Shown piece after piece: positions 5,253 through 60,209 of a DNA stretch of 64,000 nucleotides. This DNA is from Bacillota bacterium. Its GTDB lineage: Bacteria > Bacillota > Halanaerobiia > Halanaerobiales > M55B127. Position 1 is the first letter of the stretch; the number at the start of each line of letters is the position of its first letter. The notes beneath the pieces were generated by a model, which worked only from the letters and a program-made list of their open reading frames with translations, did not search any database and was not told the origin of the DNA. Both the position numbers and the translations under genes were made by a program. The stretch is taken from NCBI GenBank assembly GCA_051745185.1, contig JBNJDV010000002.1:7136-71135 (forward strand), written 5' to 3'.

Positions 5253-5266
5253 TAGATTATTTTAAC

Positions 5267-5303
5267 GGGGTTTATTCATGATTAAATGGATAAACTCCTT
5301 TTT
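5267..5303 (+). terminator. Rho-independent terminator after rpmB
   Basis: Stem GGGGTTTAT (5267-5275) pairs with ATAAACTCC (5290-5298), with one G-U pair, followed by TTTTT. The T-run overlaps the stop codon of the convergent malic enzyme gene. Confidence 0.6.
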
Positions 5304-6516: not shown

Positions 6517-6520
6517 CGGA

Positions 6521-7069: not shown

Positions 7070-7082
7070 TTTTATCACCTAG

Positions 7083-7913: not shown

Positions 7914-7925
7914 AATATTCCCCTA

Positions 7926-12053: not shown

Positions 12054-12070
12054 TTTGACACCTCATATAG

Positions 12071-25642: not shown

Positions 25643-25691
25643 ATTAGTATAACTACAAGATGAAATTATATGTTTTTTGGAGGTATTAATT

Positions 25692-27431
25692 ATGTCAATA
25701 GATGGAATATTATTATCAGCAATTAAAACAAATTTAATTAATAAACTTAAAGGTGGAAGAATTGATAAAATATATCAACCAGATAAAAGAACAATAACTA
25801 TAACTGTAAGAAATAATAACTATAATCATAAACTTCTAATCAGCTCTGATTCAAGAGAAGCAAGATTACAAATCACAGAATTTGATTTTGAAAACCCAAG
25901 TTATCCACCCGATTTTTGTATGGTGCTTAGAAAATATCTTATAAGAGGCATTATTAAAGATATTTCACAACCTGATTTTGAAAGGATTTTGGAATTTAAA
26001 ATTGAAAGTTACAATAAAATATACCACCTCATCATAGAAATTATGGGCAGATATAATAATATAATATTAATAAATGATAATAATTTAGTTCTAGATGCAA
26101 TTACCAGACTAACTAATCAAGGGAAAAGAGATATTCATCCTGGAAGTATATATGAATATCCTCCTAGTCAAGATAAACTAAATCCACTCAATGTAAATTA
26201 TGATACTTTCTTCAATCAAATACCCTCTAATTTTGACAAAAAGGTGTATCAAGCAGTTATGTACAACTTTAGGGGAATTGGTCCTGCTTCAAGCAAAGAA
26301 ATCGCTTATAGGGCTAATATAGACCATAATGAAAAATACAATGAATTAGAACAATCAAATAAAGATTCCCTTTTTGAAAGTTTTGATAATATCTTTGATA
26401 ATTTAAAAAATAATAAATTTAATCCTGTGATAGGATATAAAAATAATGAAATTGAATACTATTCGGCTTTTAAGTTAAACTACAAACCTAATATTGACAA
26501 AGTGATAGAATTTGAAGATACAGATAAGTTATTTGACTATTACTATGAACACTACCTAAAAGATATTGAAGTAAAAGAAAAAAAGAATAAATTAAACGGT
26601 ATTGTAAAGGGTTTTCTAAATAAAAACATTAAAAAACAAGATGAATTTAAAAAAGATTTAAAACAAAACAAAAACTTTGAACTTTTCAAACAAATTGGTG
26701 AGCTAATCAAAGCAAACCTACATCAAATTAAAAAAGGTGACCAAAGTATTAAATTAACTAACTACTATAGCCAAAATCAAGAAGAAATAAAAATTGACCT
26801 AGATCCAAAAATTACACCAATTGAAAACGCACAAAAATACTTTAAAAAATACCAAAAAGCTAAAAAGAGTCTTTCACATCTAAAAAGGCAGATTGGAAAG
26901 TTACGGCATGAAGAAAAATATTTAGATCAAATTCTTTACAATATTGAACAAGCAAGTAACCTTGATGAATTAAATGAAATTGAAAGTGAGCTGAAGGAAG
27001 AAGGATATATTAAAGAAAATAAACAAAAGAAGAATAAAAATAACAAAAAACTTCCGCCATATAAATATATTAGCTCTGATAACTATCAAATTTTAATAGG
27101 TAGAAATAATAAACAAAATGATAAGTTGACTAAATATATCGCAAATAAAGGTGATATCTGGTTACATACCAAAAAAATAGCTGGTTCACATGTCATAATA
27201 AGAAATCATACAAATGATGAAGTACCAGAAAGTACAATTTTAGAAGCAGCTAAACTAGCGGCATATTTTAGTAAAGCAAAAGAATCAAAAAATGTCCCGA
27301 TTGATTTTACTCCAGTTGAAAATGTAAATAAACCTAAGGGGGCAAAACCTGGTCTAGTCTATTATGAAAAATATCAGACTGTTTATGTTGACCCAGCTTC
27401 TAAAGAGGTGATTAAAAAAGTTGAAAAATAA
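25692..27431 (+). CDS. rqcH: Ribosome quality control factor RqcH (NFACT / FbpA / YloA family)
   Basis: MSIDGILL... forms the NFACT-N domain, followed by a Lys-rich coiled-coil middle and the NFACT-R motif DIWLHTKKIAGSHVII. GGAGG lies 8 nt before the ATG at 25692; the track TTG at 25677 is an over-extension. Confidence 0.88.
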   Translation: MSIDGILLSAIKTNLINKLKGGRIDKIYQPDKRTITITVRNNNYNHKLLISSDSREARLQITEFDFENPSYPPDFCMVLRKYLIRGIIKDISQPDFERILEFKIESYNKIYHLIIEIMGRYNNIILINDNNLVLDAITRLTNQGKRDIHPGSIYEYPPSQDKLNPLNVNYDTFFNQIPSNFDKKVYQAVMYNFRGIGPASSKEIAYRANIDHNEKYNELEQSNKDSLFESFDNIFDNLKNNKFNPVIGYKNNEIEYYSAFKLNYKPNIDKVIEFEDTDKLFDYYYEHYLKDIEVKEKKNKLNGIVKGFLNKNIKKQDEFKKDLKQNKNFELFKQIGELIKANLHQIKKGDQSIKLTNYYSQNQEEIKIDLDPKITPIENAQKYFKKYQKAKKSLSHLKRQIGKLRHEEKYLDQILYNIEQASNLDELNEIESELKEEGYIKENKQKKNKNNKKLPPYKYISSDNYQILIGRNNKQNDKLTKYIANKGDIWLHTKKIAGSHVIIRNHTNDEVPESTILEAAKLAAYFSKAKESKNVPIDFTPVENVNKPKGAKPGLVYYEKYQTVYVDPASKEVIKKVEK

Positions 27432-29253
27432 ATTTGTTTTTATAACAATAATTTTGATTTTATTAACTTTTGTCTTTACAAGCAGTATACAAGCTGAACT
27501 TTCAAGAATAAATGTTAATAAAGATATGTATTTAGTTGAAAACTTTGATCGATTTAAATCAGTGGAATCTCCCAAACTTGCATTAGCTTTAAGCGGTGGT
27601 GGAGCAAGAGGTTTTGTAAATCTAGGAGTAATTAAAGCACTGGATGAAGAAGGGATTTATCCAGATATTATAATTGGATCAAGTATGGGAGGTATTATTA
27701 GTACTCTTTATGGAAGTGGTCTTGACTATGGAAGTATAGAAACTATAATCACAACATTACCTTATAGAACATTATTTGATATAAATTTAATTCCAGTCTA
27801 TTCAGTATTTCAAACTGATAAACTAAATTATTTTTTAGAATTAATTTCACCATATGATAGAATAGAAAATTTCCCTATTAAAACAGCATTGCTCACTTTT
27901 GATTTGGACAGCGGCTATAAGTATATTGCTAGTGAAGGAAAAATATCAGAAGTACTTCAAAGCACCTATTCTATTCCTTTTTACTATCCAGTACACAAAA
28001 GTAAGGGTAGACATCTCATAGATCCTGGGATAGTCGAAATGGTGCCAGCTAAGGCTGCAAGAGCATTAACTGCTGATATTGTAATTTCAACTACAGCCTT
28101 TGATGAACTACCTTATGATACTTATAAATACCCCTTACAATCCTTATTTAGAATGCTGCTTTTAGTTCAACAAAGAAATGCACAACCAATTTTAGAAGAT
28201 TATTCAGATATAATTGTAGATAATGATGTTAGTGATTTTGATTTTAAAGACTTTGATAAGGTAGAAAGATTTATAGAAATCGGCTATAATAATACTAAAA
28301 AAATGATGCCTGAAATTAAGAGGGTTCTAAAAGAAAAAAATTACAAAACAACTAAACCTAATTTTATAAAACTTGATGAACTGTATTTTGAAAATCTATA
28401 TACAGATATTCTTTTTGATAGAATTATCTATCCTGATAGCAACTTTAAGTATCTCTTGTATTATTTTAACAGTCAATCCTTTTTCGAACAGGAACTCTTT
28501 AGAAAGTTGGTTTATGACTTTCATTATGGTTTCTTCTTTGAAAAATCACATTTTCAACTAAAAACTCTCTTTGATGTTGATAAAGATAGGCATACAGAAA
28601 CGATGTTAAGGTATAAAAAACTAACAGAAAATACCGACCTAACATTAAAATTAAAAAACAATACTCAATTTAATAGTATCGATTATATAAGTGAATTAAA
28701 ATATTTTATTAAAAACTCATCAGTTTCAGTTGGCGTTGCAAATTTAAATTTAGAAAATTATTACTATCTAAATAATGACGTCCAACTTGAGGGTAGTAAA
28801 GTTGACTTTCAAAACAATCTAGACTTACTGTTACACAATACTAAAAAACCACAAATAATAAATTCTAGTCTAATCAACTATGTTATTAACAGACGTTGGA
28901 AGTATACAAATAAATTTATATATACAAATACTGATTTATTAGGTAATCCAGATATTTTTAGAGGTATTGATAGAGAAAGCAAAGAAAAAACTTCTATATC
29001 AACAGCTTTAACGTATAATGTCCCTTTTAGTGAGTCGCCAGAATTACTTTACTTCTTTTCATTAGAACAGCTTAATCCATCAATCTTTTTGGATATCGAA
29101 TCAACTGAAGATTTAAATTATGCTTTTGGAATAAACTTTAATATGGTTTCTTCAATTATGGGGCTTAAACCATTAAACATTGATTTGAGTTCAGCTTATG
29201 ATGCAAATTCTGGTAACCTAGTTTATAATTTTTCAGTAGATGTTAAATTTTAA
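27421..29253 (+). CDS. Secreted patatin-like phospholipase fused to a putative C-terminal outer-membrane beta-barrel (type Vd autotransporter-like)
   Basis: TTG start 9 nt after GAGGTGA. Signal-peptide-like MKNKFVFITIILILLTFVFTSSIQA. Patatin motifs SGGGARG, GSSMG and IDPG. The C-terminal ~300 aa is rich in alternating-hydrophobic strands and ends LVYNFSVDVKF. Confidence 0.7.
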   Translation: MKNKFVFITIILILLTFVFTSSIQAELSRINVNKDMYLVENFDRFKSVESPKLALALSGGGARGFVNLGVIKALDEEGIYPDIIIGSSMGGIISTLYGSGLDYGSIETIITTLPYRTLFDINLIPVYSVFQTDKLNYFLELISPYDRIENFPIKTALLTFDLDSGYKYIASEGKISEVLQSTYSIPFYYPVHKSKGRHLIDPGIVEMVPAKAARALTADIVISTTAFDELPYDTYKYPLQSLFRMLLLVQQRNAQPILEDYSDIIVDNDVSDFDFKDFDKVERFIEIGYNNTKKMMPEIKRVLKEKNYKTTKPNFIKLDELYFENLYTDILFDRIIYPDSNFKYLLYYFNSQSFFEQELFRKLVYDFHYGFFFEKSHFQLKTLFDVDKDRHTETMLRYKKLTENTDLTLKLKNNTQFNSIDYISELKYFIKNSSVSVGVANLNLENYYYLNNDVQLEGSKVDFQNNLDLLLHNTKKPQIINSSLINYVINRRWKYTNKFIYTNTDLLGNPDIFRGIDRESKEKTSISTALTYNVPFSESPELLYFFSLEQLNPSIFLDIESTEDLNYAFGINFNMVSSIMGLKPLNIDLSSAYDANSGNLVYNFSVDVKF

Positions 29254-34400: not shown

Positions 34401-35759
34401 ATGGAACTAAAATTAACAAATAATTCTAAAATTAGAGCTAAAAACATACTTATACTGGCACTACCGGCCATACTTGAAATGAGTTTAAATACAATGCTTG
34501 GGGTAGCGGATACATTAATGATCAGTAGAATAATTGGTAAAGAAGCATTAGCTGCAGTGGGTTTTGCAAACCAAATATTTTTTACCCTAATCTTTGTGTT
34601 TTCATCTTTTAATGCCGGTGCAACAGCTATGATAGCCAGAAGTTATGGTGAAAAAAATTACAGCCGTTTGAATAAAATAATGGGGCAAAATCTTAGTTTA
34701 AATACTTTAATAGGTATAGGGGTCTTTTTTATAACCTATAGTTTTGCTGGAAATATTATGAGTGTATATGACATCACCCCACAAGTTAGAAGTTTAGGTA
34801 TCACATATCTAAAGGTTGTTTCTTTTAGCCAGTTTTTTATGTTCATATCATTTGCTATGGCAGCTAGTCTAAGGGGTGCTGGTGATACTAAAACACCTAT
34901 GTTTATAACTGGTTCAGCAAATATTTTAAATATAATTGGTAATTATGTCTTAATGACAGGGTTTTGGATCTTCCCAAACATGGGAATTGCTGGTGCAGCA
35001 CTTTCTACTACTATTTCAAGACTATTGGCTTCAATTGCATATATCATTGTAGTTTTTAATATTAAAGAAAAAATGCAGTTAAGATTACAAAATCTAAAAT
35101 TGACAAAAGAAATACTGAAACCCTTATGGAAATTTAGTTATGCTGCTGGACTTGAACAACTATCTATGCAGGCTGCCTTTTTTTTGAATGGGATAATTAT
35201 TTCTATGTTGGCTACTACTTCAGAAGCTGCTTTTAGGATTTTAATCAATATTGAATCAATTTCTTTTATGCCGGCAATTGGCACTGGTATTGCAACAGCT
35301 ACATTAGTGGGTAAAAATCTTGGTGAAAATAATCCTGAAGAATCACTGAAAACTGGTTTTACAGCAGCTGCACTGGGAGTTTTTTGGGGGCTTTTTATGG
35401 GAATAATATTCATTTTATTTCCCGAACCGATAATTAGAATTTTTACAACTGAAACTGAGGTTGTTGAAGCTTCAATTAAAACATTAAGAATTGCAGGATT
35501 TAATCAAGCTCCACTTGCTTTTATGATTATAATGGCAGGAGCATTAAGAGGTACCGGTGATACAAAAGGAGTAATGATAATTACAGCCATGAGATTATGG
35601 CTAGTATTTGTACCCTTAACCTACTTGTTTACAATCTATTTAAACCAAGGTGTCACAGGTGTCTGGTATGCTGAAATAACTTCCTTTGTTGTCTTTTCAA
35701 TTGTAATCTATAAAAGGTTTTATGCAATGGAGTGGACTGAGATTAAAATGTTCGCATAG
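34401..35759 (+). CDS. MATE family multidrug/sodium efflux transporter
   Basis: 452 aa, 12 predicted TM segments, N-terminal ILALPAILEMSLNTMLGVADTLMISR typical of NorM/MATE. GGAG lies 8 nt before the ATG. Confidence 0.85.
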   Translation: MELKLTNNSKIRAKNILILALPAILEMSLNTMLGVADTLMISRIIGKEALAAVGFANQIFFTLIFVFSSFNAGATAMIARSYGEKNYSRLNKIMGQNLSLNTLIGIGVFFITYSFAGNIMSVYDITPQVRSLGITYLKVVSFSQFFMFISFAMAASLRGAGDTKTPMFITGSANILNIIGNYVLMTGFWIFPNMGIAGAALSTTISRLLASIAYIIVVFNIKEKMQLRLQNLKLTKEILKPLWKFSYAAGLEQLSMQAAFFLNGIIISMLATTSEAAFRILINIESISFMPAIGTGIATATLVGKNLGENNPEESLKTGFTAAALGVFWGLFMGIIFILFPEPIIRIFTTETEVVEASIKTLRIAGFNQAPLAFMIIMAGALRGTGDTKGVMIITAMRLWLVFVPLTYLFTIYLNQGVTGVWYAEITSFVVFSIVIYKRFYAMEWTEIKMFA

Positions 35760-35821: not shown

Positions 35822-38608
35822 CTATTCACTTTTTAATACTGAAGCACATCTTTCACAAACATCTTCATATTTGTCATCTTCTCCTACAGTTGTATCAAAC
35901 TTCCAGCATCTTTCACACTTTTTACCTTTAGCCTCTTCAACATAAATAGTTATTTTTGAATTTTCACCTTGATAGGTATCTTTTTCTAAATTATCTTTTA
36001 AATCTACTTCAGATACTATAAAAAGGTCAGCTAAATTATCAAATTCAGTATTTAATAAGTTACCGGTTTTTTCATCATCAGTTGTTATCTCAACTCTAGC
36101 TTCTAATGAATTACCGATTGTCTTATCATTTCTGGCAATTTCAAGTGCTTTTGATACATCTTTTCTGATATCTAATAGATATTGCCATTTATCCATTAGT
36201 TTATCATCCTGATAAGCTTCACCAAATGAAGGCCAATCACTTAAAAACACACTGTCTTCTAAATCTGTTTTTTCTAAAGCATACTGCCATACCTCTTCAG
36301 CTGTATGAACTAAAATCGGTGATACTAACTTTATTAAAGTAATCATAATATCAAATAAGGCACTTTGAGCTGATCTTCTACTTAGTGAGTCAGTACCATC
36401 AGTGTAAAGCCTGTCTTTAATGATATCCATATATAAGGAGCTCATTTCAACCGTACAGAAATTATGAACAGCATGGTATACTTTGTGATATTCATACTGC
36501 CTATAGGCTTTATTTACCTTCTCAGAAAGTTCTTTCAGTTTAATCCCAATCCACTTATCTATTTCTTTTCGATCTTTAAATTCAACATAATTTTCTTGTT
36601 TTTTGAAATCACTTGTATTTCCCAATATAAAACGGAATGTATTTCTGATTCTACGATACACTTCTGAATTTTGTTTAAGTATTTTATCAGAAACCCTTAC
36701 ATCATCTTTAAAGTTAGATGATGCAACCCATAACCTTAAAATATCAGCACCATACTGATCTATTATTTTATGTGGTGAAACAACATTACCTTGAGATTTT
36801 GACATCTTATTACCTTTTTTATCAACTGTAAAACCGTTGGTTACTACTTCTTCATAAGGTGCTTTACCTTCTGTAGCAACAGCTGTTAACAGTGATGAAT
36901 TAAACCAACCTCTATACTGGTCAGTACCTTCAAGATAAACTTGAGCCGGCCAATTTAGATTTTCGCGTTGCTCTAATACTGCTTTATGACTAGAACCTGA
37001 GTCAAACCAAACATCCATGATATCTTCTTCTTTTGACAGATTACTGCTTTTACAGTTTGGACATTTATACCCATCAGGTAAAATCTCTGCAGCTTCATAT
37101 TTATACCAAGCATTTGAACCTTCTTTTAAGAATATATCTTTAATAGCTTTAAGAGTATCATCATTGATAATTGATTCTCCACAGTCATCACAGTAAAAAA
37201 TTGGAATAGGAACTCCCCATTTTTTCTGTCTTGAAATACACCAATCAGTTCTTTCAGATACCATGTTTGCCATTCGTTTTTCTCCCCAGACAGGAAACCA
37301 TTTCACATCATGAATTGCCTTTAAGGTTTCTTCTTTTATATCCTCTATTGAAGCAAACCATTGATCAGTTGCTCTAAATACCAATGGTCCCTTACATCTC
37401 CAACAATGTGGATACTGATGGTCGATAAAGTTCAATTCTAATAATAAGTTTCTTTCCTTTAACATATCAGTTACTTTAATGTTTGCCTTATCATAATGCA
37501 TCCCGGCAAATACTCCTGCTTCTTCAGTAAAGTAACCTTTATTATCCATAGGAGCATATACTTCTAAACCGTATTCCTGTCCAACTATAAAGTCATCATG
37601 ACCATGGCCTGGTGCAGTGTGGACACAACCTGTACCATCTTCTAATGTGACATGTTCTCCTAAAATGATCAGAGATTTACGATCCATAAAGGGGTGGTTT
37701 GTATTCACTCTTTCTAATTCACTACCTTTAAATGGATCACCGATTACCTTGTAATCTTCAATGCCAACCTTTCCCATTACTTCATCTACAAGTTTTTCAG
37801 CCATAACAAGTTTATCACTACCAACTTTGACAACAACATAATTGAAATCGGGATGCAGTGTGATAGCTAAGTTTGATGGAATTGTCCAGGGTGTGGTTGT
37901 CCAAATAACCATATGACTATCCTGTGGGGTTAATTTTACATTACCCACTTCAACCTCTTCTGCAAATGGAAATTTTACATAAATTGATGGAGTGCGGTCT
38001 GTGTGATACTCTACTTCTGCTTCAGCAAGAGCAGTCTCACAACTTGGACACCAATGTACTGGTTTTTGACCTTTATAAAAAAGTCCCTTTTTAGCCATTT
38101 CACCAAAGACTTCAATTTGTTTTACTTCATATTCAGGATTAAGTGTTAAGTATGGATTATCCCATTCACCCCAAACACCTAATCTTTTAAACTGTTCTTT
38201 TTGTCTGTCAACATACTTTAAAGCATAATCTTTACACTTTTCTCTCAGTTCTGCAACAGATAGATCATTTATTTTATCTCCCATTTCTTTACTAACCTGA
38301 TGTTCAATTGGTAAACCATGAGTATCCCAGCCTGGTACATATGGAGAATAATATCCTTTTAAAGTACTATATCTTGTAACAATATCCTTTAGTACTTTAT
38401 TTAAAGCATGACCGATATGTATATCTCCATTTGCATATGGAGGACCATCATGTAGAATAAAAGGCTCATTATCTTCACGATTTTTTACAGCTCTTTCATA
38501 TACTTTATTTTCTTCCCATAACTTCTGATATGCTAACTCTCTTTCACTTAAATTAGCGCGCATTGGAAAGTCAGTATCTGGTAAATTAATTGTTTCTTTA
38601 TAACTCAT
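35822..38608 (-). CDS. ileS: Isoleucyl-tRNA synthetase (type 1, with C-terminal zinc finger)
   Basis: HIGH motif ([10 protein letters not shown]), KMSKS motif ([10 protein letters not shown]), and C-terminal CERCWKF...CERC. Confidence 0.95.
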
Positions 38609-38637: not shown

Positions 38638-38850
38638 AAAAAAAGGCCATTCCACCCTTGAAGGGGCGAAAGGACCGCGGTACCACCCTAATTTCTACTT
38701 TAGAACTTTAACGCAGTTATACGGGTTAAATTACTTAATTTCAAATAACCAGTTCAAGAGTGATCTTCATTAAAATCAGTGATTACCGGCTCTCACCAAT
38801 CCGGTTCGCTGTAAATATGATAATAATTACTGTCTCTATCAAAACTATTA
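38638..38850 (-). promoter_or_regulatory. T-box riboswitch leader (Ile specifier AUC) controlling ileS
   Basis: On the minus strand: GA/K-turn AGAGA (38833-38837), AG bulge and distal loop AGCGAACCGGATTGGTGAGAGCCGG, specifier region GUA-AUC-A (AUC at 38781-38783), T-box sequence AATTAGGGTGGTACCGCG (38676-38693), then the terminator GGTCCTTTCGCCC / GGGTGGAATGGCC plus a U7 run (38638-38676). Confidence 0.88.
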
Positions 38851-38866
38851 ATTTTAATTTTCTTAT

Positions 38867-38895
38867 ATTATAAGATATATAATTTGTTTAGTCAA
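38867..38895 (-). promoter_or_regulatory. Sigma-A promoter of the ileS T-box leader
   Basis: On the minus strand: TTGACT (38890-38895, overlapping the divIVA stop codon), a 17-nt spacer, then TATAAT (38867-38872). Confidence 0.55.
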
Positions 38896-39394
38896 GTTCT
38901 GCAGTATCGTCTAAATCTTCAATTTTATCTTGATACTTATCTAAATCTATTTCTTCATCTTCTTCTAATACTTCTAATTGACTTTCTAACAAATTACGTA
39001 ATCTAATTTTGAAAAAGGTTTTTGTTTCTTTTAATTTTTCTAGTTTTTTATATTCTTCTGCTAAGTCCTTTTTAACTTTTTCACGCATCTTTTCAGCTTC
39101 CATATTAGCTTTTTCAATAATCATATTAGCTTCTTCTTTAGCTTGTTTGGTTTGTTTATCAGCTATTTCTTCAATGCTTCTTAATGTACTTTTTAAATTT
39201 TCTTCAATATTTTCATAACTTTTTAACTTGTCCTTAAGCTTCTCATTCCTATCTTGAAGTTCTTTTTTCTCCTGTAACATTCTTTCATATTCTACACCAA
39301 TATCATCTAAAAATTCTTCAACTTGACTTTTATTATAACCTAAAGCTGATACTGTAAACTCTTTGTTGTATATATCCAGCGGATTCATTTTCAT
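38888..39394 (-). CDS. divIVA: Cell division/polarity protein DivIVA
   Basis: N-terminal NPLDIYNKEFTVSALGYNKSQVEEFLD followed by a long coiled coil. Located after ylmH and before ileS as in Bacillus. Confidence 0.9.
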   Translation of the reverse strand: MKMNPLDIYNKEFTVSALGYNKSQVEEFLDDIGVEYERMLQEKKELQDRNEKLKDKLKSYENIEENLKSTLRSIEEIADKQTKQAKEEANMIIEKANMEAEKMREKVKKDLAEEYKKLEKLKETKTFFKIRLRNLLESQLEVLEEDEEIDLDKYQDKIEDLDDTAELD

Positions 39395-39433: not shown

Positions 39434-40222
39434 TTAAGTATATCTTTTCAATAATAACTTTATTCTACCTCTATTTGAAAATCCTCTTCTTTCTGCAACT
39501 TCAACTCTCCCTCGATTTCTAATTGAAATCAGATCATCTAATTCTACCTCACTTGCCGGATCTGTTACAACTTTATAATTCAATTTAACCCTATTGTTTT
39601 TAATATCTCTTGATATTTTATTTCTACTATCTCCAAATCCTGCACTTGCAACTGCATCAAGTCTCATCGATGCTACAGTTGTTGGAATATCTTTTGTATT
39701 ATGTGTTGGTATAACTAAATCTTCATCAGTAATTTTTGATATCTCAACTGGAACCTCATTTACTTTTTTAAAGTTCATTTTAACAAATTCAAAGATTTCT
39801 TTTGCAATGATTATTTGACCAAATTCAGCTAAAACTAAGATATCACCAATCATTTCTCTTTTAATCCCTAATCCTAAAACAGAACCCAAAAAATCTTTAT
39901 GGCTTAAACTTTTAAAGTTAAAATTACCATTAACTTTTATTATTTCTATTGAAGACTCAACATGGTCTGGAAATAAATAATCAGGGAAAATTATAATTCT
40001 CTTTCGCTCTGCTCTTTTATAACCACCTTCTTCAATATAATTAACACCATTTATTTGCTTAATTAAGCCCAATGCAACTTTTCTCTGGTATGGATTTAAA
40101 AAATTGGTTTTTTCAGTACTTTTTCTTTTTAAAACTTTTTCAATTTTATCTAATACAAAATCCCCTAAAAATCTATCATCTTCGCGATGAAGATGTGATA
40201 GTAGTTTTTCTTTATCAAACAT
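39434..40222 (-). CDS. ylmH: YlmH-like RNA-binding protein (S4 domain)
   Basis: 262 aa. C-terminal S4 motif MRLDAVASAGFGDSRNKISRDIKNNRVKLN. Confidence 0.85.
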   Translation of the reverse strand: MFDKEKLLSHLHREDDRFLGDFVLDKIEKVLKRKSTEKTNFLNPYQRKVALGLIKQINGVNYIEEGGYKRAERKRIIIFPDYLFPDHVESSIEIIKVNGNFNFKSLSHKDFLGSVLGLGIKREMIGDILVLAEFGQIIIAKEIFEFVKMNFKKVNEVPVEISKITDEDLVIPTHNTKDIPTTVASMRLDAVASAGFGDSRNKISRDIKNNRVKLNYKVVTDPASEVELDDLISIRNRGRVEVAERRGFSNRGRIKLLLKRYT

Positions 40223-40244: not shown

Positions 40245-40532
40245 TTAAAATCCAAACATTATACTTCTAAGTAAACTAATTACAAAATTTCTTATTATAG
40301 ATAGAGCGAAAATAGCAATTAAAGGTGAAAAATCAATTCCAATACTTCCTGTAGGTATCAGTCTTCTTATTGGTCCTAAAATTGGCTCTGTAATACTATA
40401 TGCAATCCTAAGAAACTTTCTCCATTGTTTGTTATCTACATCTGGTCTAACCCAAGAAATAATTACTCTAAATATTATCAACCAATTTAGCACTGTAAAT
40501 AAAGTGCTAACCAACCATATTAACATAGCCAT
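40245..40532 (-). CDS. ylmG: YggT/YlmG family membrane protein
   Basis: 95 aa, two TM segments, and the conserved ITEPILGPIRRLIP stretch. Confidence 0.85.
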   Translation of the reverse strand: MAMLIWLVSTLFTVLNWLIIFRVIISWVRPDVDNKQWRKFLRIAYSITEPILGPIRRLIPTGSIGIDFSPLIAIFALSIIRNFVISLLRSIMFGF

Positions 40533-40552
40533 TATAACAACTCCTTTTTAAT

Positions 40553-41251
40553 CTAATAATATTTTCTCTTACCAAATATTGCTGTACCGACTCTTATTAT
40601 AGTTGCACCTTCCTGAACTGCAATGTGATAATCATTTGACATTCCCATTGATAATTCATCTAATTTATGACCATTATTATTTAGTTTATCTAATAACTTT
40701 TTCATATTCTTATAATATTTTCTTACATCTTCAGGATTATTTTTATAGGGTGTTATAGTCATCAGCCCTTTAACATTAACATTTTTATAATCATTTATTT
40801 TTTTTAAAGCTTCTTGTAAATTTTCTTCGGTGAATCCATACTTTTTTGGATCTTTTGCTATATTTACTTGTAATAAAATATCTATTTTCTTATTTTGTTT
40901 ATCAGCTTCACTGTTAACTTCTTTTGCAATTTCTAAACTATCAATTGATTCAATCATTTCTAATTGCTTAATCTTCATTAAGTATTTTACCTTATTTTTT
41001 TGTAGATGTCCAATAAAGTGCCATTTTATGTCTTGATCAAAAAAAAGTTCGTTTTTTCCTAATAACTCCTGGACACGATTTTCCCCGAATACTTTTTGGC
41101 CTGCTTTTAAAGCCCTAATAATTCTTTTTGGCGGATGATTTTTTGCTACAGCAACCAATTTTACATCATTAGATTTTCTGTTAACTTCTTTACAATTTAT
41201 TTTTATCTTTTTATATACATTATCTAGGTTTTCTTTTATTGAACCAGACAT
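40553..41251 (-). CDS. ylmE: PLP homeostasis protein YggS/YlmE
   Basis: LVAVAKNHP (PLP-binding Lys), HFIGHLQKNK, and C-terminal IRVGTAIFG. The ATG at 41251 lies 2 nt after the upstream stop; the track TTG at 41257 is the alternative. Confidence 0.88.
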   Translation of the reverse strand: MSGSIKENLDNVYKKIKINCKEVNRKSNDVKLVAVAKNHPPKRIIRALKAGQKVFGENRVQELLGKNELFFDQDIKWHFIGHLQKNKVKYLMKIKQLEMIESIDSLEIAKEVNSEADKQNKKIDILLQVNIAKDPKKYGFTEENLQEALKKINDYKNVNVKGLMTITPYKNNPEDVRKYYKNMKKLLDKLNNNGHKLDELSMGMSNDYHIAVQEGATIIRVGTAIFGKRKYY

Positions 41252-41253
41252 TT

Positions 41254-42180
41254 TCAATCATCCCTTCCATAATTTACTTTTTCAGGGTTAACTATAACTT
41301 CATCTCCAACTTCTAAATTTTCAACAATAGACCATTTTTCAGTATTATCAGTAACAACTACATTCTTTGTTTTTATTTTATGATCAAAAGTATATAATAA
41401 TACTTTAGTCCCAGAAGGAGTATTAAATATTGCTGAATTTGGTACTGCTAAACCATTATAGATATTTTTTATTAACTTAATATTAACCCATCTAGTATTA
41501 TTCCACCTTTTAAAATACTGATTTAAATCAAGTAATAAATAACTTGCCTCATCTCGATTATATATTTTTTTTATATTTGATTTAACTAAGTCACTATAAT
41601 CTTGGTCTGGATCATAATCAACAAAAATTGTTTCACCATTACTATAATTTTCTGCTCTTTTATTATCGACTTTGATTAAAAGATACAAAGCATAGTTATT
41701 GATATTACGATACAGTTTAACTCCATTTTCAACATTATTACCTGATACATATTGATGATAATCCCTTTCATATTGATTATAATCTTCTAACACATCTGGC
41801 GTAATATTTCCAAACTTCAATCTTTCTTCTAACCCATCATATGCATAACTTACAATTCCTGGTTGATCAGCATATATATTATATACTTTTTCATCATTTT
41901 CTATATATGCAATCTTTTGACCATATGAAGCTCTTTCACCTTCACTTAATAATATGTTTAAAGTACCGCTCATTGGCGATTTGTATACCTTCTCATCTCT
42001 AATTACAAGTGCTTCAGTTTCAAAACCAGAAACAATTTCTTGATAACTTACTGTTACCGTCTTAATATCTTCATTTTTTAATATAAAAAAAGATATTAGT
42101 CCAATTATAATGATAAAAATGAAGGCAAAATATTTCCAACTTATAAATTTTCTTTTTTTATTTTCTTTTCTATTATTCAT
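41254..42180 (-). CDS. Membrane-anchored protein with a membrane-fusion-protein (HlyD-like) domain pattern; function unknown
   Basis: 308 aa. Basic N-terminus plus one TM segment (YFAFIFIIIIGLISFFIL). Lipoyl-like half motifs VYKSPMSGTLNILLSEGERASYGQKIAYI and IYADQPGIVSY. C-terminal GLAVPNSAIF...LEVGDEVIVNP resembles MFP beta-barrel ends. There is no adjacent transporter gene. Confidence 0.5.
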   Translation of the reverse strand: MNNRKENKKRKFISWKYFAFIFIIIIGLISFFILKNEDIKTVTVSYQEIVSGFETEALVIRDEKVYKSPMSGTLNILLSEGERASYGQKIAYIENDEKVYNIYADQPGIVSYAYDGLEERLKFGNITPDVLEDYNQYERDYHQYVSGNNVENGVKLYRNINNYALYLLIKVDNKRAENYSNGETIFVDYDPDQDYSDLVKSNIKKIYNRDEASYLLLDLNQYFKRWNNTRWVNIKLIKNIYNGLAVPNSAIFNTPSGTKVLLYTFDHKIKTKNVVVTDNTEKWSIVENLEVGDEVIVNPEKVNYGRDD

Positions 42181-42193
42181 CTTATCACCTATA

Positions 42194-43000
42194 TCAATTT
42201 CTCGTGATTAGTGCAGCCATTCTACCTGTTTTGCCTTCATCCCTACGATAGGAATAAAATAATTTTTCATCTTTATATGTACAGTATTTAGTCACATAGA
42301 TATTTTTATTATAAATACCAGACTTTAATGCTAAAAGTCTATTAAGCTCTTTTAAATCCAAATAAAAGTTATTATTATTTTTAGTTAAATATGGTTTTTC
42401 AAAATCAAACTTTTCTTTAAATTTGTTAGCTAAGTTTTCGTCAATTTCATAAACATCTTTTGAAATTGCAGGTCCTATTATGATAACTAAATCATCTGTT
42501 TTGCTTTTGAGTTTATTAATAAAATAATCAATAGTAATAGTTATTATATTACCAAAAGTTCCTTTCCATCCGGAATGAATCAATGAAAAGTAACCCTTGT
42601 TTTTATCTACAATATAAATTGGTACACAGTCAGCAAATAAGCCCCCTAATATAATACTTTTATCTGTTGAGACCATTCCATCAATATTAGAAATGGAAGA
42701 TTCATATGAGAATACACCTTTTTTCTTATAGCTTGCATCAACTTCCTTGATTTTATCGGAATGGACCTGTTCAGAAAATATTATATTTTTAGGATTATAA
42801 CCTAATGATTCAAATAATTTTTTGCGGTTTTTTAAAACCTTAGATTTTTCATCATCTGTTTGGAATCCCAAATTTAATTCATCATAAGGAGGATTAGAAA
42901 AACCTCCATTTCTAGTTGTAAAGATTATCTTAAAACCCAAATCATTTAAAGCTTGATTTTCTAAGTACTGTATATTATTTTTTGTTATTAATTTATCCAT
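42194..43000 (-). CDS. ylmD: YlmD/YfiH (PgeF) family multicopper-oxidase-like / purine nucleoside phosphorylase protein
   Basis: EQVHSDKI and LIHSGWKGT motifs. The ATG at 43000 follows AAAGGTGAT. The track start at 43075 would run through the ftsZ terminator hairpin. Confidence 0.82.
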   Translation of the reverse strand: MDKLITKNNIQYLENQALNDLGFKIIFTTRNGGFSNPPYDELNLGFQTDDEKSKVLKNRKKLFESLGYNPKNIIFSEQVHSDKIKEVDASYKKKGVFSYESSISNIDGMVSTDKSIILGGLFADCVPIYIVDKNKGYFSLIHSGWKGTFGNIITITIDYFINKLKSKTDDLVIIIGPAISKDVYEIDENLANKFKEKFDFEKPYLTKNNNNFYLDLKELNRLLALKSGIYNKNIYVTKYCTYKDEKLFYSYRRDEGKTGRMAALITRN

Positions 43001-43023
43001 TTTATCACCTTTGTAATAAATAT

Positions 43024-43050
43024 AAAAATCCCGATGTAGACACATCGAGA
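43024..43050 (-). terminator. Hairpin plus U-run immediately after ftsZ (terminator or attenuator)
   Basis: On the minus strand: TCTCGATGT, loop GTCT, ACATCGGGA (9 bp, one G-U pair), then TTTTT. Confidence 0.55.
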
Positions 43051-43077
43051 CCTTTATATTTATTGATATAAACAAAT

Positions 43078-44151
43078 TTATTTTTTTCTTAAAAAAGCTG
43101 GAATATCTAATTCATCACCTTCAAAATTGTCCATATCGAAATCAGTTTCAAGGTCTTTTTCAACTTCCTTGTTTTCTTTTGCTTTTTTCTGGACCGCATC
43201 TCTATCAAAACCTGTTGCTATAACAGTTACTTTAACTTCATTATTATAATCATCATCTATTACTGCCCCAAGTATAATATTAGCCTCTGGGTCTGATACT
43301 TCTTGAATAACTTTTGCAGCTTCATTAGCCTCATGAATTCCTAAATCATTTCCACCAGTAATGTTAATTAAAACACCTTTTGCACCTTCAATAGATGCCT
43401 CTAGCAGTGGTGATTCTATAGCTTTTTTAGCAGCATTTTGTGCTCTACCTTCTTCACTTGCCATACCAATACCCATTAATGCAGTTCCAGCGTCTTTCAT
43501 TATTGTCTTAACATCAGCAAAGTCAAGGTTAATTATACCCGTAATTGTAATTAAATCAGAAATCCCTTGTACTCCCTGTCTTAATACATTATCTGCAATT
43601 TTAAAAGCATCAATCAAACTGGTATTTGGTTCTGCAACATCTAATAATCTATCATTAGGAATTACAATTAATGTATCAACACTGTCTTTTAATTGTTTAA
43701 TTCCTTCTATAGCATTATCCATTCTTTTTTTACCTTCAACTGTAAATGGTTTTGTAACTACACCTACAGTTAAAGCTCCCATTTCTTTTGCTGCTTGAGC
43801 AATTATTGGAGAAGCCCCTGTACCGGTTCCTCCACCCATACCAGCAGTTATAAATACCATATCTGCACCTTTAACTGCTTCACGTATTTCTTCAATGTTC
43901 TCTTTAGCTGCCTGTTCTCCTATTTGGGGATGAGCACCTGCTCCTAATCCCTTTGTTATATTTTGTCCTATACGAATTGTCATTGAAGCGTTTGAAGCCA
44001 TCAATGCCTGGGCATCAGTATTTATAGCTGTAAAATCTACGCCTTCTAATCCTTCATCTATCATTCTATTTAATGCGTTATTCCCGCCTCCGCCTACTCC
44101 AATAACTTTTATATTAGCAAACTGTTCCATTTCTGTACCTAAATCAAACAA
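43078..44151 (-). CDS. ftsZ: Cell division GTPase FtsZ
   Basis: Tubulin signature [13 protein letters not shown]-terminal [13 protein letters not shown], and the C-terminal peptide DIPAFLRKK. Confidence 0.97.
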
Positions 44152-44166
44152 ATTATATACCTCCTT

Positions 44167-45456
44167 TTAAAAGAAATCTTGGAACCAACTCTTTATTTTA
44201 GAAAAGAAAGACTCTGTTATTTCTTTTTCCCTTTTTCTATTATTATTTTTGGAACTTTCAAATTCTTGTGGTTCATTTTCCATGCCATATTCTATTAAAC
44301 CAATTACTGTTGAAAAAATTGCTTTTGGAATCTTTCCATCTTTATTTTTATATAAAGGATCATCAATTACATCAGATAACCCATATACATAATCTGGTTT
44401 ACCTAATCTAACTGGTAGATCAAATACACTTTCAGCTAATTTAGCTGATCCGTCTAATAAAGATGCACCACCTGTTAACACAACACCAGCTGGGGTTAAA
44501 TCCTTAGGTCCAGATGAATATATTTGTCTGTTTATCATCTCATACATTTCTTTTGTTCTAGGTTCAATTACATTTGTTAGTATTTTTAAAGGTATCTCTC
44601 TTTTATCTTCACCACTTGCAGATAAAACATCAATATAGTTTTCTTCACCTTCAATTTCTTTAGGTAACGCTGAACCATAGTTGATTTTTATTTTTTCTGC
44701 TTCAGATATTGGTGTTCTTAATCCAATAGCTATATCATGAGTAACATGATTTCCACCTACTGGTAATACATAAGTGGCAACAATACTGCCTTCATGGAAA
44801 ACTACAATATCAGTAGTTCCTCCTCCTAAATCTACTAGAACTACCCCTAATTCCTTTTCATCATCTGTAAGTACAGATTTACTAGAAGCAAGGGGTTCTA
44901 ACACAATATCATCAACTTCAATTCCAGCTCTAATAACACTTTTTACTAAGTTTTGTATTGATGTTGAAGACCCTTTTACAATATGGGTTTCTACTTCTAA
45001 TCTTACTCCAGACATACCAAGTGGGTCCTTAATTCCTTTGTGCCCATCAACTATAAATTCTCGTGGTATAACATGTATTATTTCTTCTTCTGAAGGAAGA
45101 GAAATAATTTGAGCTGCTTCCATTACACGATCAATATCATTTTCACTTATCTCTTTTTTCTCACCTGAAACAGCCACCACACCGTGATTATTTATTGAAG
45201 AAATATGTGAACCAGCAATACCTATAAAAGCGGAATCCACCTCAATACCGGCCATGATTTGAGCTTTGTTTACAGATTCTCGGATAGAATTACTAGCTTT
45301 ATCTATATCTACAACTACTCCTTTTTTTAATCCTTTTGAAGGAGAGAATCCAATACCGATTATTTCAAACTGATTATTGGGTGTAACTTCTGCTATTATA
45401 GTACATATTTTTGTTGTACCTATATCCAATCCTGTTATTATTCTACGACTACTCAC
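44167..45456 (-). CDS. ftsA: Cell division protein FtsA
   Basis: Actin-fold motifs GLDIGTTKI and VLVDLGGGTTDI. GTG start after GAGAGGAGG. Confidence 0.95.
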   Translation of the reverse strand: MSSRRIITGLDIGTTKICTIIAEVTPNNQFEIIGIGFSPSKGLKKGVVVDIDKASNSIRESVNKAQIMAGIEVDSAFIGIAGSHISSINNHGVVAVSGEKKEISENDIDRVMEAAQIISLPSEEEIIHVIPREFIVDGHKGIKDPLGMSGVRLEVETHIVKGSSTSIQNLVKSVIRAGIEVDDIVLEPLASSKSVLTDDEKELGVVLVDLGGGTTDIVVFHEGSIVATYVLPVGGNHVTHDIAIGLRTPISEAEKIKINYGSALPKEIEGEENYIDVLSASGEDKREIPLKILTNVIEPRTKEMYEMINRQIYSSGPKDLTPAGVVLTGGASLLDGSAKLAESVFDLPVRLGKPDYVYGLSDVIDDPLYKNKDGKIPKAIFSTVIGLIEYGMENEPQEFESSKNNNRKREKEITESFFSKIKSWFQDFF

Positions 45457-45566: not shown

Positions 45567-46280
45567 TTATTGATTTAATTTTAATACTGGTTTATTATAT
45601 ATAGAAATATCAACATAATTTACATCATAATTATTTTGTTGTATTTGATTAGATACATTTTCTAAAACCCTAAACTTTTCAGAAATATTTTCTAACTCAC
45701 CAAATATAATATCATACTTCTCACTAAAATTTAAAGTAACATTTTGATTAGAGAATATTATTTGACTTGGAATATCTACATTTCTATCAATATATTTAAT
45801 AAATTCATTTATGAATTGATTCATTTCTCTGCTATACTGTATTTTATTATCATTATCAGGTATATCATATCCTCTAATTACAGGTAAGATTATTTTTTGT
45901 TTTAATTCCTCATCAGAAAATATATTTCCATTTTCATCTAAGTAAAAATAATTTTCATCTCTAATAAATCTAAAAACTAACTCACTTTCATCTACAACAA
46001 AATGTGCTGTATTAGGAAGTTCTCTAGCAAAAGTAACATTATCTACATACTTTAAATTAGTTATTTTTTTTTCTATTTTATCTTTTTTTAAATAAACTAT
46101 GTTTTGGCCAATATATTCTTCCATATATGAAGAGATTAAATTTTCATCAAAACTATCTATACCCCTTAATTTTACTGTTTTAATAGTAAAATATGGTGAA
46201 TAAAAGAGATAAAATGCAGTACCTATTAAAAATAATATTAAGACTATGACAATTAAATTAACCTTATTCATCTTATCCAC
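45567..46280 (-). CDS. ftsQ: Cell division protein FtsQ/DivIB (POTRA domain)
   Basis: N-terminal TM segment followed by FTIKTVKLRG..., a POTRA-type beginning. Positioned between murC and ftsA. Confidence 0.85.
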   Translation of the reverse strand: MDKMNKVNLIVIVLILFLIGTAFYLFYSPYFTIKTVKLRGIDSFDENLISSYMEEYIGQNIVYLKKDKIEKKITNLKYVDNVTFARELPNTAHFVVDESELVFRFIRDENYFYLDENGNIFSDEELKQKIILPVIRGYDIPDNDNKIQYSREMNQFINEFIKYIDRNVDIPSQIIFSNQNVTLNFSEKYDIIFGELENISEKFRVLENVSNQIQQNNYDVNYVDISIYNKPVLKLNQ

Positions 46281-47652
46281 CTACTATTTTTTCGCCTATT
46301 TTATCAACATTACCTGCTCCTATAGTTAATAGTATATCACCTGAATTTAGTTTGTTTTTTATGTATTTTTCTATATCCTTAAATTTTTTTATATAATGAA
46401 CATTCATGTTGATATTTTTATCATTTTTATGTTTTTTTACTAAATTATATAGTTTATTTGAATTTACACCTGGAATTGGACTTTCACTAGCGGCATATAT
46501 ATCTGTTAATATTAATTCATCAGCTCCATCAAAAGATCTGCTGAATTCTTTCATTAAATTTTTTGTTCTACTATATCTGTGTGGTTGAAATACTACAAAT
46601 AGCTTGTTATGTTTTAAATCCTTTGCTGTTTTAATCGTATTAATAATTTCAGTAGGATGATGTGCATAATCATCAATAACTACTGCATTATTGTAAACTC
46701 CTTTTTTATCAAATCTTCTTTTAACTCCAGTATAATCATTAAGCCCATTTTTTATCTCGTTTGGACTGATCTTTAAAGTATATGATAAAGCAAATGAAGC
46801 TAATGCGTTTAAAACATTATGTTCTCCAGGAACTTTAATATTAATTTTATCGATAAACTTACCCTTTATAAATAGATCAAACTCAGTTGTAAACATTTTT
46901 TTGATTATATTTTTAGCAGTAATATCCTCATTATTCAATCCATAAGTTATTATATTTTTACAGTGATTTTTAATTTGAGGATAATCTTTTAAAGCCTCTC
47001 CCCAAATAATTAATCCTCCATTATCTGGGATTTTATCAATAAATTCAATAAACTTATTAATAAGGTCCTCTTCTGATTTATAGTAATCAAAATGATCCCA
47101 CTCTATATTTGTTATAATAGCATATCTAGGATCAAAAAAGGTAAATGAACCATCACTTTCATCAGCTTCAGTGATGAAATATTTACCGTTTCCATCCTTG
47201 ATATTACCTCCAATCAGATTTAGGTTGCCACCTATCATAACAGAGGGATCTAAGTTTGTGTTGACAAATATTGAAGTTAACATCGAGGTTGTTGTTGTTT
47301 TTCCATGAGTACCTGTAATAGCAATGGTATCCTTATCTTTAAATAGTCTAGATAGAAACTGTGCTCTTTTATATATCTTAATATCTTTATTAATAGCAGT
47401 TTGTAATTCAACATTTTTTTTATCAATAGCATTTGTATAAACAACTGCTTGAGCATCCTTTAAATTACTAGCTTTGTGTCCAATATATATTTTCACACCC
47501 ATAGACTCTAATATTTCAGTTTGTTTGTTTTTTTTGATATCAGAACCACTTACTTTATATCCCCTTTTTATTAAAACTTTTGCAATACCGCTCATTGAAA
47601 TACCGCCAACACCTATAATATGTATGTTATCAAATTCCAAGTAACTATTCAC
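46273..47652 (-). CDS. murC: UDP-N-acetylmuramate--L-alanine ligase
   Basis: HIIGVGGISMSGIA and ITGTHGKTTTTSM. Confidence 0.93.
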   Translation of the reverse strand: MNSYLEFDNIHIIGVGGISMSGIAKVLIKRGYKVSGSDIKKNKQTEILESMGVKIYIGHKASNLKDAQAVVYTNAIDKKNVELQTAINKDIKIYKRAQFLSRLFKDKDTIAITGTHGKTTTTSMLTSIFVNTNLDPSVMIGGNLNLIGGNIKDGNGKYFITEADESDGSFTFFDPRYAIITNIEWDHFDYYKSEEDLINKFIEFIDKIPDNGGLIIWGEALKDYPQIKNHCKNIITYGLNNEDITAKNIIKKMFTTEFDLFIKGKFIDKINIKVPGEHNVLNALASFALSYTLKISPNEIKNGLNDYTGVKRRFDKKGVYNNAVVIDDYAHHPTEIINTIKTAKDLKHNKLFVVFQPHRYSRTKNLMKEFSRSFDGADELILTDIYAASESPIPGVNSNKLYNLVKKHKNDKNINMNVHYIKKFKDIEKYIKNKLNSGDILLTIGAGNVDKIGEKIVGG

Positions 47653-59234: not shown

Positions 59235-60209
59235 CTATTCTGATAGAAAATCAATCTCGGGAATTCTATCCAAAAAATCTAATATTAATTTAGGTCTATC
59301 AGTTATATAACCACTGGAATTTAAGTGAGCCATAATTCTAAACTGCCAACCATTATTTATTACATAGGGAAACACAAATATATCCCTTTCATGAGCCATT
59401 GCTATATTCCACGGCCAGCTTATGAAACCCTTTACTCCTATACCATTAGCAGTGCCTTCAGCCAAATCAAGCCATCTTTTCCAACTTCTTCTGCTCATTC
59501 TATTATTAGTTAATAAAAATAGTCTAGGTATATTTGGTGCATTATTTTTGAACTCCTTTAAAATATCAAGATCAGTTGAAAATATTATTACATCAGAATA
59601 ATATGTTTTATTACTTGTGCTTTCAACTGATTCATACCAATCATTTTTTATCAATAATTCAATTATATCCTCTGTTAATCCAGGATAACTATTAGTATCT
59701 TTTAAATCTAAGACAATTCCTGGATTTTTTTCATGACTATCTATTATATCCAGTAAACTTTTGAGAGTTACAATATTTAAATTCTTGTAATTATCATTAG
59801 CTCTTTTTGGATACCTACTATTAAACCAAGAACCAAAGTCTAATTTTAATAATTCTTCATAAGTAAATGTATTTATATGGTCATTTTGTCTATCAGGATA
59901 TATTTTTTCTATATTTGATGTCCTTTTTAAATTATTATCATGTAATGCTACTAATATATTATCTTTTGTCCTATGAATATCCACTTCAAGATAATCTGCT
60001 CCTAGATCAATTGCCTTTAAAAAGGCTGGTTTTGTTAACTCAGGTGCTATAAAGGATGCACCTCTATGTGCAATTACAGCAGGATATTTTATATCATAAT
60101 TATTTAAAATGTCTTTCCCTTTATTTGAAGGTCTAATAAGATAATATCCACCGTAAAACACAAAAAATATAATTAGTACTATTAATAATATTATTAGAGC
60201 TAAACGCAC
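59235..60209 (-). CDS. Membrane-anchored glycerophosphodiester phosphodiesterase (GDPD family)
   Basis: N-terminal TM segment (LALIILLIVLIIFFVFYGG), then VIAHRGAS...YLEVDIHRTKDNILVALHD, the GDPD catalytic signature. Confidence 0.82.
   Translation of the reverse strand: MRLALIILLIVLIIFFVFYGGYYLIRPSNKGKDILNNYDIKYPAVIAHRGASFIAPELTKPAFLKAIDLGADYLEVDIHRTKDNILVALHDNNLKRTSNIEKIYPDRQNDHINTFTYEELLKLDFGSWFNSRYPKRANDNYKNLNIVTLKSLLDIIDSHEKNPGIVLDLKDTNSYPGLTEDIIELLIKNDWYESVESTSNKTYYSDVIIFSTDLDILKEFKNNAPNIPRLFLLTNNRMSRRSWKRWLDLAEGTANGIGVKGFISWPWNIAMAHERDIFVFPYVINNGWQFRIMAHLNSSGYITDRPKLILDFLDRIPEIDFLSE

Follow-up and report, generated by a model that had tools for sequence, protein, structure and literature searches.

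The gene at positions 41254 to 42180 of a 64,000-nucleotide (nt) stretch of a Halanaerobiales genome (contig JBNJDV010000002.1 of assembly GCA_051745185.1; the whole stretch is called the window here, and its genes are all read on the minus strand unless stated) encodes a 308-amino-acid (aa) protein that resembles membrane fusion proteins (MFPs), also known as periplasmic adaptors. Within the Halanaerobiales, it is the orthologue of a very large, uncharacterized family found throughout the Clostridia, in which the adaptor-like gene is the regular first gene of the ylmE-sepF-(yggT)-(ylmH)-divIVA cluster. A preliminary description of this DNA had treated the gene as an orphan connected to the absence of sepF. 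B. subtilis lacks the gene, which therefore seemed anomalous by that comparison. A hidden Markov model (HMM) search of 50%-identity cluster representatives returned 7,667 matches at E values of ≤1e-3 and 2,867 at ≤1e-30, so the "orphan" belongs to a family of at least 2,867 clusters at the stricter threshold. We are highly confident of the identity, topology, fold, and linkage of the 308-aa gene taken jointly.

Adaptor-like orthologues showing 33 to 87% identity occupied the same position in 16 Halanaerobiales genomes from a species-level genome collection, and the order ftsZ-ylmD-gene-ylmE was found in all 16. The linkage to ylmD and ylmE, whose absence from relatives was part of one refuting condition in the preliminary description, was conserved. 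In one of these loci (L015), ylmD/pgeF is degenerate (7374 to 7676), with only about 104 aa matched, and Halanaerobium hydrogeniformans (L001) has ftsZ-gene-ylmE with no ylmD, indicating that ylmD is also being lost from the cluster in some lineages. Beyond the order, locus searches were seeded with alignment subsets A2 and A4, a metagenome scan contributed 60 loci, and a locus was counted as informative when it had at least 150 nt of sequence downstream of the adaptor-like gene. The next gene was ylmE in 75 of the 77 informative loci, which fall into 56 clusters when grouped at 90% identity and 30 when grouped at 50%, and the gene does travel with FtsZ-associated genes, as had been proposed. 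The ylmE start lay -28 to +54 nt from the stop codon of the adaptor-like gene, with one case at +276. The two exceptions were L003, in which ylmE is missing and sepF-divIVA comes straight after the adaptor-like gene, and L051, which has no ylm gene and in which an adaptor-like gene for a 504-aa protein is followed by one for a protein with DUF4332, HHH, and PASTA domains (5127 to 7948). Seven look-ups of distant homologues yielded the orders miaA-gene-sepF-divIVA, hfq-gene-ylmE-sepF-ylmH-divIVA-ileS, gene-ylmE-sepF-ylmH, and trmD-gene-ylmE-sepF-divIVA. Approached in reverse, from SepF proteins, the adaptor-like gene was directly upstream of ylmE in five of five loci. The linkage between the adaptor-like gene and ylmE is far beyond chance. 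Other parts of the cluster are less constant: yggT is missing from L004, L005, L022 to L024, L050, L060, L064 to L066, and L082, and an IS110-family transposase gene between sepF and yggT (L089, 5555 to 6853, minus strand) splits the cluster in one genome.

Since ylmE is the most constant neighbor, and YggT is a small membrane protein often encoded in the cluster, the protein could cooperate with YlmE, YggT, or both in metabolism or transport, for example in pyridoxal phosphate (PLP)/amino acid or ion homeostasis across the membrane, apart from the divisome. We consider this rather improbable. YlmE is cytoplasmic whereas no more than about 14 residues of the adaptor-like protein lie in the cytoplasm, yggT is absent from many clusters, and in L003 the gene is followed by sepF-divIVA with no ylmE at all.

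The Firmicute DCW2, or ylm, cluster has been defined as ylmE, sepF, ylmG, ylmH, and divIVA together with ileS (Garcia et al. 2021, PMC8136486). That definition lists no adaptor-like gene, and neither "HlyD" nor "membrane fusion" is in the text of the paper. The window has the matching gene order with ileS downstream; unlike DCW2 as published, its cluster lacks sepF, is fused to ftsZ-ylmD, and carries the adaptor-like gene. A literature search found no paper on the Pfam and TIGR entries that match the family or tying an HlyD/MFP gene to ylmE, sepF, or divIVA. The family itself is already catalogued, in the Pfam RND_rel domains, among the relatives of TIGR02828, and under "HlyD family" names given by PGAP, and it is the linkage to the division cluster that appears to be new. 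Those entries (TIGR02828 and PF26018/PF26012/PF26011) are computational catalogues without an attached function, and the source annotation of family members reads "HlyD family efflux transporter periplasmic adaptor subunit." Named members come from H. hydrogeniformans, Ruminococcus sp., Anaerovoracaceae, Casaltella massiliensis, Ca. Fimenecus, Caldisalinibacter kiritimatiensis, and Thermovenabulum gondwanense. In the precomputed Pfam assignments, the trio of PF26018, PF26012, and PF26011 is on every homologue, with PF26012 (HH_RND_rel) on the long forms only; the 308-aa protein has PF26018 (BSH_RND_rel) and PF26011 (Beta-barrel_RND_rel) and lacks PF26012.

TIGR02828, "putative membrane fusion protein," was the top NCBIfam match for all 22 aligned family members and is the closest curated NCBIfam of the 308-aa protein (41.7 bits, E of 1e-10), which falls far below the cut-off of 154.4 bits. 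We take this entry to lie among the sporulation-oriented TIGRFAMs, and in L025 the gene comes after spoIIGA-sigE-sigG-spoIIR-ylmC, both of which would fit a sporulation-specific membrane protein acting, for example, in engulfment or in the forespore envelope. Against this stand the low score of the window's protein and the retention of the gene by Halanaerobium and the window's clade, neither of which has spoIIGA/sigE/sigG beside ftsZ in its cluster. Halanaerobium is a non-spore-former, and the constant neighbors of the gene are vegetative division genes. A sporulation-specific role is in our view very unlikely.

A Pfam search matched the 308-aa protein to HlyD_2 (PF12700) with 115.5 bits against a cut-off of 25.1 (E of 3e-33), placing it in the HlyD-like superfamily, and TIGR01730 gave a local match of residues 146 to 299 to profile positions 152 to 309, covering the six-stranded beta-barrel. 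An AlphaFold2 (AF2) model built on 22 homologues (pLDDT of 87, pTM of 0.72) consists of a transmembrane (TM) helix at residues 15 to 35 followed by an all-beta ectodomain. Barrel-sandwich (lipoyl-like) strands lie at residues 45 to 111 of the model, and strands at 252 to 296 may form the membrane-proximal C-terminal beta domain; the alignment with BesA spans about 280 columns. Foldseek against the PDB returned only periplasmic adaptors: BesA (4kku) was first (E of 2e-13, TMt of 0.60), followed by MexA, AcrA, ZneB, CusB, and MacA, and E values for BesA, MexA, and AcrA ranged from 1e-12 to 1e-13. A sequence-profile search of the PDB gave nothing significant, the best adaptor being 4l8j with an E of 0.018. 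As modeled, the ectodomain has the periplasmic-adaptor fold minus the alpha-hairpin. The MFP-like fold of the preliminary description, with its split lipoyl/barrel-sandwich domain, is thus borne out by HMM (HlyD_2), AF2, and Foldseek alike, together with a beta-barrel and a probable C-terminal beta domain, and the motifs quoted for it are all in the translation of 41254 to 42180.

The topology had also been read correctly, as a basic N-terminus and one TM segment. The sequence and alignment A2 delimit a strongly basic cytoplasmic tail with seven K/R (aa 1 to 14; 42139 to 42180), and the single TM helix (aa 15 to 35; 42076 to 42138) is defined by DSSP on the AF2 model and by the sequence. Directly after the tail, the juxtamembrane residues K16 and F18 (KFISWKYF) are almost invariant in Halanaerobiales in alignment A2. 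The protein has neither a cysteine nor a lipobox, which makes the TM helix an uncleaved signal-anchor, and the basic tail together with the lack of cysteine identifies an N-in/C-out signal-anchored protein and not a lipoprotein. The 308-aa protein is therefore bitopic: its basic tail is cytoplasmic, a single TM helix spans the membrane, and everything else lies outside the cytoplasmic membrane. Throughout the family, an N-terminal TM segment was present in 270 of 278 members, and the tail was net-positive in 79%. Seven residues are invariant in alignments A1, A4, and A5, namely R61, E63, D115, E118, R230, G243, and D293. R61 and E63 lie in the family-specific motif IRDEK (aa 60 to 64; 41989 to 42003), and D115 and E118 lie in a second such motif, DGLEE (aa 115 to 119; 41824 to 41838). 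R61, E63, D115, E118, and R230 are specific to the family, and in our reading G243 and D293 fall in motifs general to adaptors. The protein has the features by which the family was defined: the N-terminal signal-anchor, the R-[DE]-E and D-G-x-E motifs, the invariant R230, G243, and D293, and a gene position directly ahead of ylmE/yggS in the cluster.

A single difference separated the Halanaerobiales proteins from their longer relatives. In alignment A1, the Halanaerobiales proteins (296 to 311 aa) are co-linear with Clostridial proteins of 365 to 473 aa, except for a gap of about 100 residues at aa 94 to 99 (41884 to 41901), the hairpin junction, where the insert is cleanly absent. The lack of a coiled-coil hairpin noted earlier is consistent with this gap and with the AF2 model of the 308-aa protein, which contains no long helix. 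A long homologue, P0207 (396 aa), was modeled with a pLDDT of 89 and has helices at residues 86 to 140 and 143 to 190, each of about 50 residues; its best structural matches were MacA, TMexC, and AcrA, with E values of about 1e-15. The insert measured from motif to motif is bimodal, at about 50 residues without a hairpin (n = 35) or about 150 with a full hairpin (n = 71), plus intermediates, and hairpin length runs from 0 to about 105 residues inside one orthologous group. At the other end of the protein, apparent N-terminal cytoplasmic extensions of 70 to 200 aa, dependent on putative starts, were seen in L069 (5533 to 7407), L074 (5524 to 7407), L047 (615 to 2246), L061 (199 to 1809), and L058 (5599 to 7272). 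These are of low complexity, either N/G/S/Y-rich or K/R/A-rich; genuine extensions of this kind would mean that some lineages carry a substantial cytoplasmic arm.

The closest structural counterpart is BesA of the Borrelia burgdorferi BesABC RND pump (4kku/4kkt/4kks), the one solved adaptor that is naturally without an alpha-hairpin (PMC3807786). BesA has a barrel-sandwich, a beta-barrel, and a membrane-proximal beta domain, and no alpha-hairpin (PMC3807786), an architecture that the 308-aa protein appears to share even though the two sequences are only 12% identical. In the 308-aa protein, by contrast, the TM anchor is uncleaved and cysteine is lacking; the surveyed part of the window holds no transporter or duct gene close to it, and the gene belongs to a division operon. 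BesA is a lipoprotein and is encoded with its own RND pump and TolC-like duct. Domain order and fold are likewise common to the family and the MacA/AcrA/MexA/YknX-type MFPs of the HlyD superfamily (HlyD_2, TIGR01730), as are the conserved G-L-x-V-P...A-I and G-D-x-V motifs found in the beta-barrel and C-terminal domain, and the long family members, like MacA and AcrA, are full four-domain adaptors whose hairpin consists of two helices, each about 50 residues long. Unlike those MFPs, the family carries R-x-E and D-G-x-E as invariant motifs of its own and has a hairpin varying from 0 to about 105 residues, and it is linked to ylmE-sepF-divIVA and not to a pump, with no adjacent ABC, RND, or MFS gene in the annotated loci.

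The Pfam survey covered the low-coordinate part of the window as far as ftsZ, about 45 kb, and, of the dcw-side open reading frames (ORFs) at 44 to 64 kb, only the one at 59235 to 60209. No ABC, RND, or MFS transporter was found in the roughly 45 kb surveyed, in agreement with the preliminary description, and none was found beside the adaptor-like gene in annotated related loci. The only transporter gene in the survey was a MATE gene at 34401 to 35759 on the plus strand, between ileS and rluD. H. hydrogeniformans has lspA (L001, 16535 to 16969) and no MATE gene at the corresponding position, and no lspA was seen there in the window. In Thermovenabulum, a MatE gene (L087, 1694 to 3094) is directly upstream of the adaptor-like gene, and no transporter other than MATE/MatE was seen adjoining the family. 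As a partner, it is probably a coincidence, the window's gene being on the opposite strand, 5.5 kb from the 308-aa gene, and absent from the same place in H. hydrogeniformans.

These observations bear on whether the protein is an ordinary efflux or secretion adaptor, with an ABC, RND, or MFS transporter encoded elsewhere and a meaningless position in the ylm cluster. The source annotation says as much, every structural match is an efflux adaptor, and the long forms retain a full hairpin like that of MacA and AcrA. However, aside from the one Thermovenabulum MatE gene upstream, no transporter gene is beside the family in annotated loci, and a position kept over 30 clusters below 50% identity, with the ylmE junction at -28 to +54 nt, is not what a hitchhiker would be expected to show. 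The family also owns invariant charged motifs, and sequence profiles reach no solved adaptor significantly. We regard an ordinary efflux adaptor as unlikely.

The absence of sepF from the window was confirmed. The ylmE-yggT spacer (40533 to 40552), which is the site of sepF in related genomes, is only 20 nt long and leaves no room for the gene, as had been noted, and a tblastn search using eight SepF queries, of which five came from Halanaerobiaceae, gave no match below an E of 0.28 in the 64-kb window. The window's clade (L006 to L016) and H. hydrogeniformans (L001) have no sepF and ylmE-yggT spacers of 18 to 36 nt. In contrast to the link that the preliminary description had drawn, the adaptor-like gene and sepF commonly occur together. 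sepF lies between ylmE and yggT in L017 to L021, L025, L026, and L088; in the Halanaerobiaceae among these (L017 to L021 and L025), it coexists with the adaptor-like gene upstream of ylmE, and it is present in every non-Halanaerobiales locus with enough sequence, L051 excepted. In a neighbor-joining (NJ) tree built from a concatenation of the adaptor-like protein, YlmE, and YlmH, Halanaerobiales are monophyletic, sepF-containing lineages are basal, and lineages without sepF are derived, which places the loss inside Halanaerobiales, at a time when the adaptor-like gene already existed, and implies that sepF was lost once or twice. The window's clade and Halanaerobium appear to have lost sepF secondarily, and the adaptor-like gene is older and independent of that loss. 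Among the best 120 matches of a SepF profile search, close SepF proteins came only from Halanaerobiaceae Z-7014, Halarsenatibacter, and metagenome-assembled genomes, with none named Halanaerobium, which is suggestive, though not proof, of a genuine loss. The two observations joined in the preliminary description, adaptor gene present and sepF absent, are both true but unrelated. FtsA is encoded at 44167 to 45456, and an FtsZ tether therefore remains despite the absence of sepF; a clean sepF loss in a Halanaerobiales subclade that keeps ftsA offers a natural test of how redundant FtsZ tethers are.

Two related proposals, that the protein substitutes for SepF as an FtsZ membrane tether or that, as a factor particular to diderms, it links the outer membrane with the septum, draw on the lack of sepF in this cluster and on the diderm envelope of Halanaerobiales, as given in a passage of PMC8136486 that cites Antunes 2016 and Taib 2020. 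Replacement of SepF is largely refuted by the coexistence of the two genes in sister Halanaerobiaceae and in nearly all other Clostridia loci sampled; in addition, only about 14 residues face the cytoplasm, and FtsA is available as the other FtsZ tether. As to the diderm proposal, hairpin-less orthologues are common in human-gut Clostridia, including Anaerovoracaceae and Casaltella / Ca. Fimenecus. We take these lineages, and the Clostridia that supply most members of the family, to be monoderm. L025, for its part, combines the hairpin-less form with sepF and sporulation genes. Hairpin loss is then neither diderm-specific nor tied to sepF, and on the assumption that these Clostridia are monoderm, a diderm-specific explanation of hairpin loss is rejected and the diderm-linked role suggested earlier is not supported. 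Overall, we give a SepF substitute or diderm coupling factor almost no weight.

In light of this, an extracytoplasmic, division-associated scaffold or adaptor appears to be the best explanation, one that we favor slightly by analogy with known adaptors. Adaptors oligomerize around the extracytoplasmic parts of their partners, and for a transporter-less gene welded to sepF and divIVA, this makes a division-associated scaffold or adaptor the most economical reading. The ectodomain would probably oligomerize on the outer face of the membrane, as other adaptors do, and the protein may act as scaffold or adaptor to some membrane partner whose gene lies elsewhere, and not as a drug-efflux component. 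Candidate partners, again by analogy, are a MacB-type/FtsEX-like ABC protein, YggT, or a septal wall enzyme; FtsEX and MacB, whose adaptor is MacA, belong to one ABC superfamily. We would not consider any particular one of these likely. Residues R61, E63, D115, E118, and R230, judging from their conservation, probably form a fixed contact at the junction of barrel-sandwich and beta-barrel, or a partner-binding site.

Several points weigh against a division-associated scaffold. Gene linkage is the sole tie of the family to division, and we know of no proven division role for the most constant neighbor, YlmE/YggS, a cytoplasmic PLP-binding protein. Oligomerization and a partner are proposed purely by analogy. 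Adaptors normally need a transporter, which could be encoded elsewhere, and B. subtilis divides without the adaptor-like gene. For a division or envelope role of some kind, we see the chances as evenly balanced.

The minus-strand order in the window is murC, ftsQ, ftsA, ftsZ, ylmD/pgeF, the 308-aa gene, ylmE/yggS, yggT, ylmH, divIVA, and ileS. Pfam and NCBIfam named ylmD, ylmE, yggT, ylmH, and divIVA and confirmed the order ylmD, 308-aa gene, ylmE, ylmG, ylmH, divIVA of the preliminary description; the remaining genes were named from their translations and annotated related loci. Translation and synteny identified murC (46273 to 47652), ftsQ (45567 to 46280), and ftsA, and the other dcw-side genes were assigned from order and size. 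ftsZ (43078 to 44151) was recognized from its translation, with 70 to 97% identity to FtsZ of related loci and the Tubulin/FtsZ_C Pfam domains on the L001 orthologue. ylmD/pgeF (42194 to 43075) matched Cu-oxidase_4/PgeF and TIGR00726 (189 bits). The TIGR00726 match begins at aa 59 of the TTG-started ORF, and the TTG start adds 25 residues without a match to any profile; the true start is likely the ATG at 43000, with AAAGGTGA before it, and the ftsZ-ylmD spacer is then 77 nt. Downstream of the 308-aa gene, itself an ORF with an ATG start, are ylmE/yggS (40553 to 41257; PLP-binding YggS family, TIGR00044, 214.8 bits), yggT/ylmG (40245 to 40532; YGGT, PF02325, E of 3e-22), ylmH (39434 to 40222; YlmH_RBD PF17774 plus S4), and divIVA, the last gene of the cluster (38888 to 39394; PF05103, E of 2e-31). 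ileS (35822 to 38608) was identified from its translation and its match to annotated related loci.

The junctions around the 308-aa gene are tight. The spacer from ylmD (42181 to 42193) is 13 nt long and has an AGGTGA Shine-Dalgarno sequence 4 nt before the ATG. At the other end, the TGA stop (41256 to 41254) overlaps a TTG (41257 to 41255) of ylmE and ends 2 nt short of the ATG at 41251, exactly as first described, and this ATG is preceded by a Shine-Dalgarno-like GGAAGGG. From ftsZ to divIVA, there were zero terminator-like sites between genes. The divIVA-ileS spacer holds a T-box leader (RF00230, 113.9 bits; 38659 to 38851, minus strand), part of which is a terminator-like hairpin at 38671 to 38650, indicating that the ylm/divIVA operon ends there and that ileS is regulated separately.

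Elsewhere in the window, genes for a PASTA Ser/Thr kinase (PrkC-like, 651 aa) and a PP2C phosphatase stand with rsgA, rpe, and rlmN (10098 to 12781, minus strand) in the usual Firmicute layout, and two PmbA/TldD-family metallopeptidase genes (447 and 462 aa) are in tandem at 20595 to 23326 on the minus strand. An NFACT/RqcH gene (25677 to 27431, plus strand) lies 12 kb from ylmH, and the Thermovenabulum cluster is also near an NFACT gene (L087, 10008 to 10438). YlmH has recently been connected to ribosome-associated quality control along with RqcH. The end of the window's NFACT gene is overlapped by 11 nt by a gene for a 610-aa patatin-like phospholipase (27421 to 29253, plus strand), an unusual pairing.

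The gene in the window is not unique, and it is the family-level pattern that gives a clear, testable lead for Clostridial cell division, which, in a class that includes gut commensals and pathogens, is far less well mapped than division in Bacillus. A place before ylmE-sepF-divIVA that is kept through very deep divergence (<25% identity) makes the family a testable candidate for a missing divisome or envelope component. More tentatively, it is possible that the family is an unrecognized, widely conserved extracytoplasmic component of the Clostridial divisome, an adaptor fold uncoupled from efflux that would form a ring or scaffold at the septum, on the membrane's outer face, for instance around a MacB-type FtsEX-like protein, YggT, or wall enzymes. 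If true, this would account for a gene welded to ylmE-sepF-divIVA across the class, and it would mean that an efflux-adaptor fold is used without an adjacent pump.

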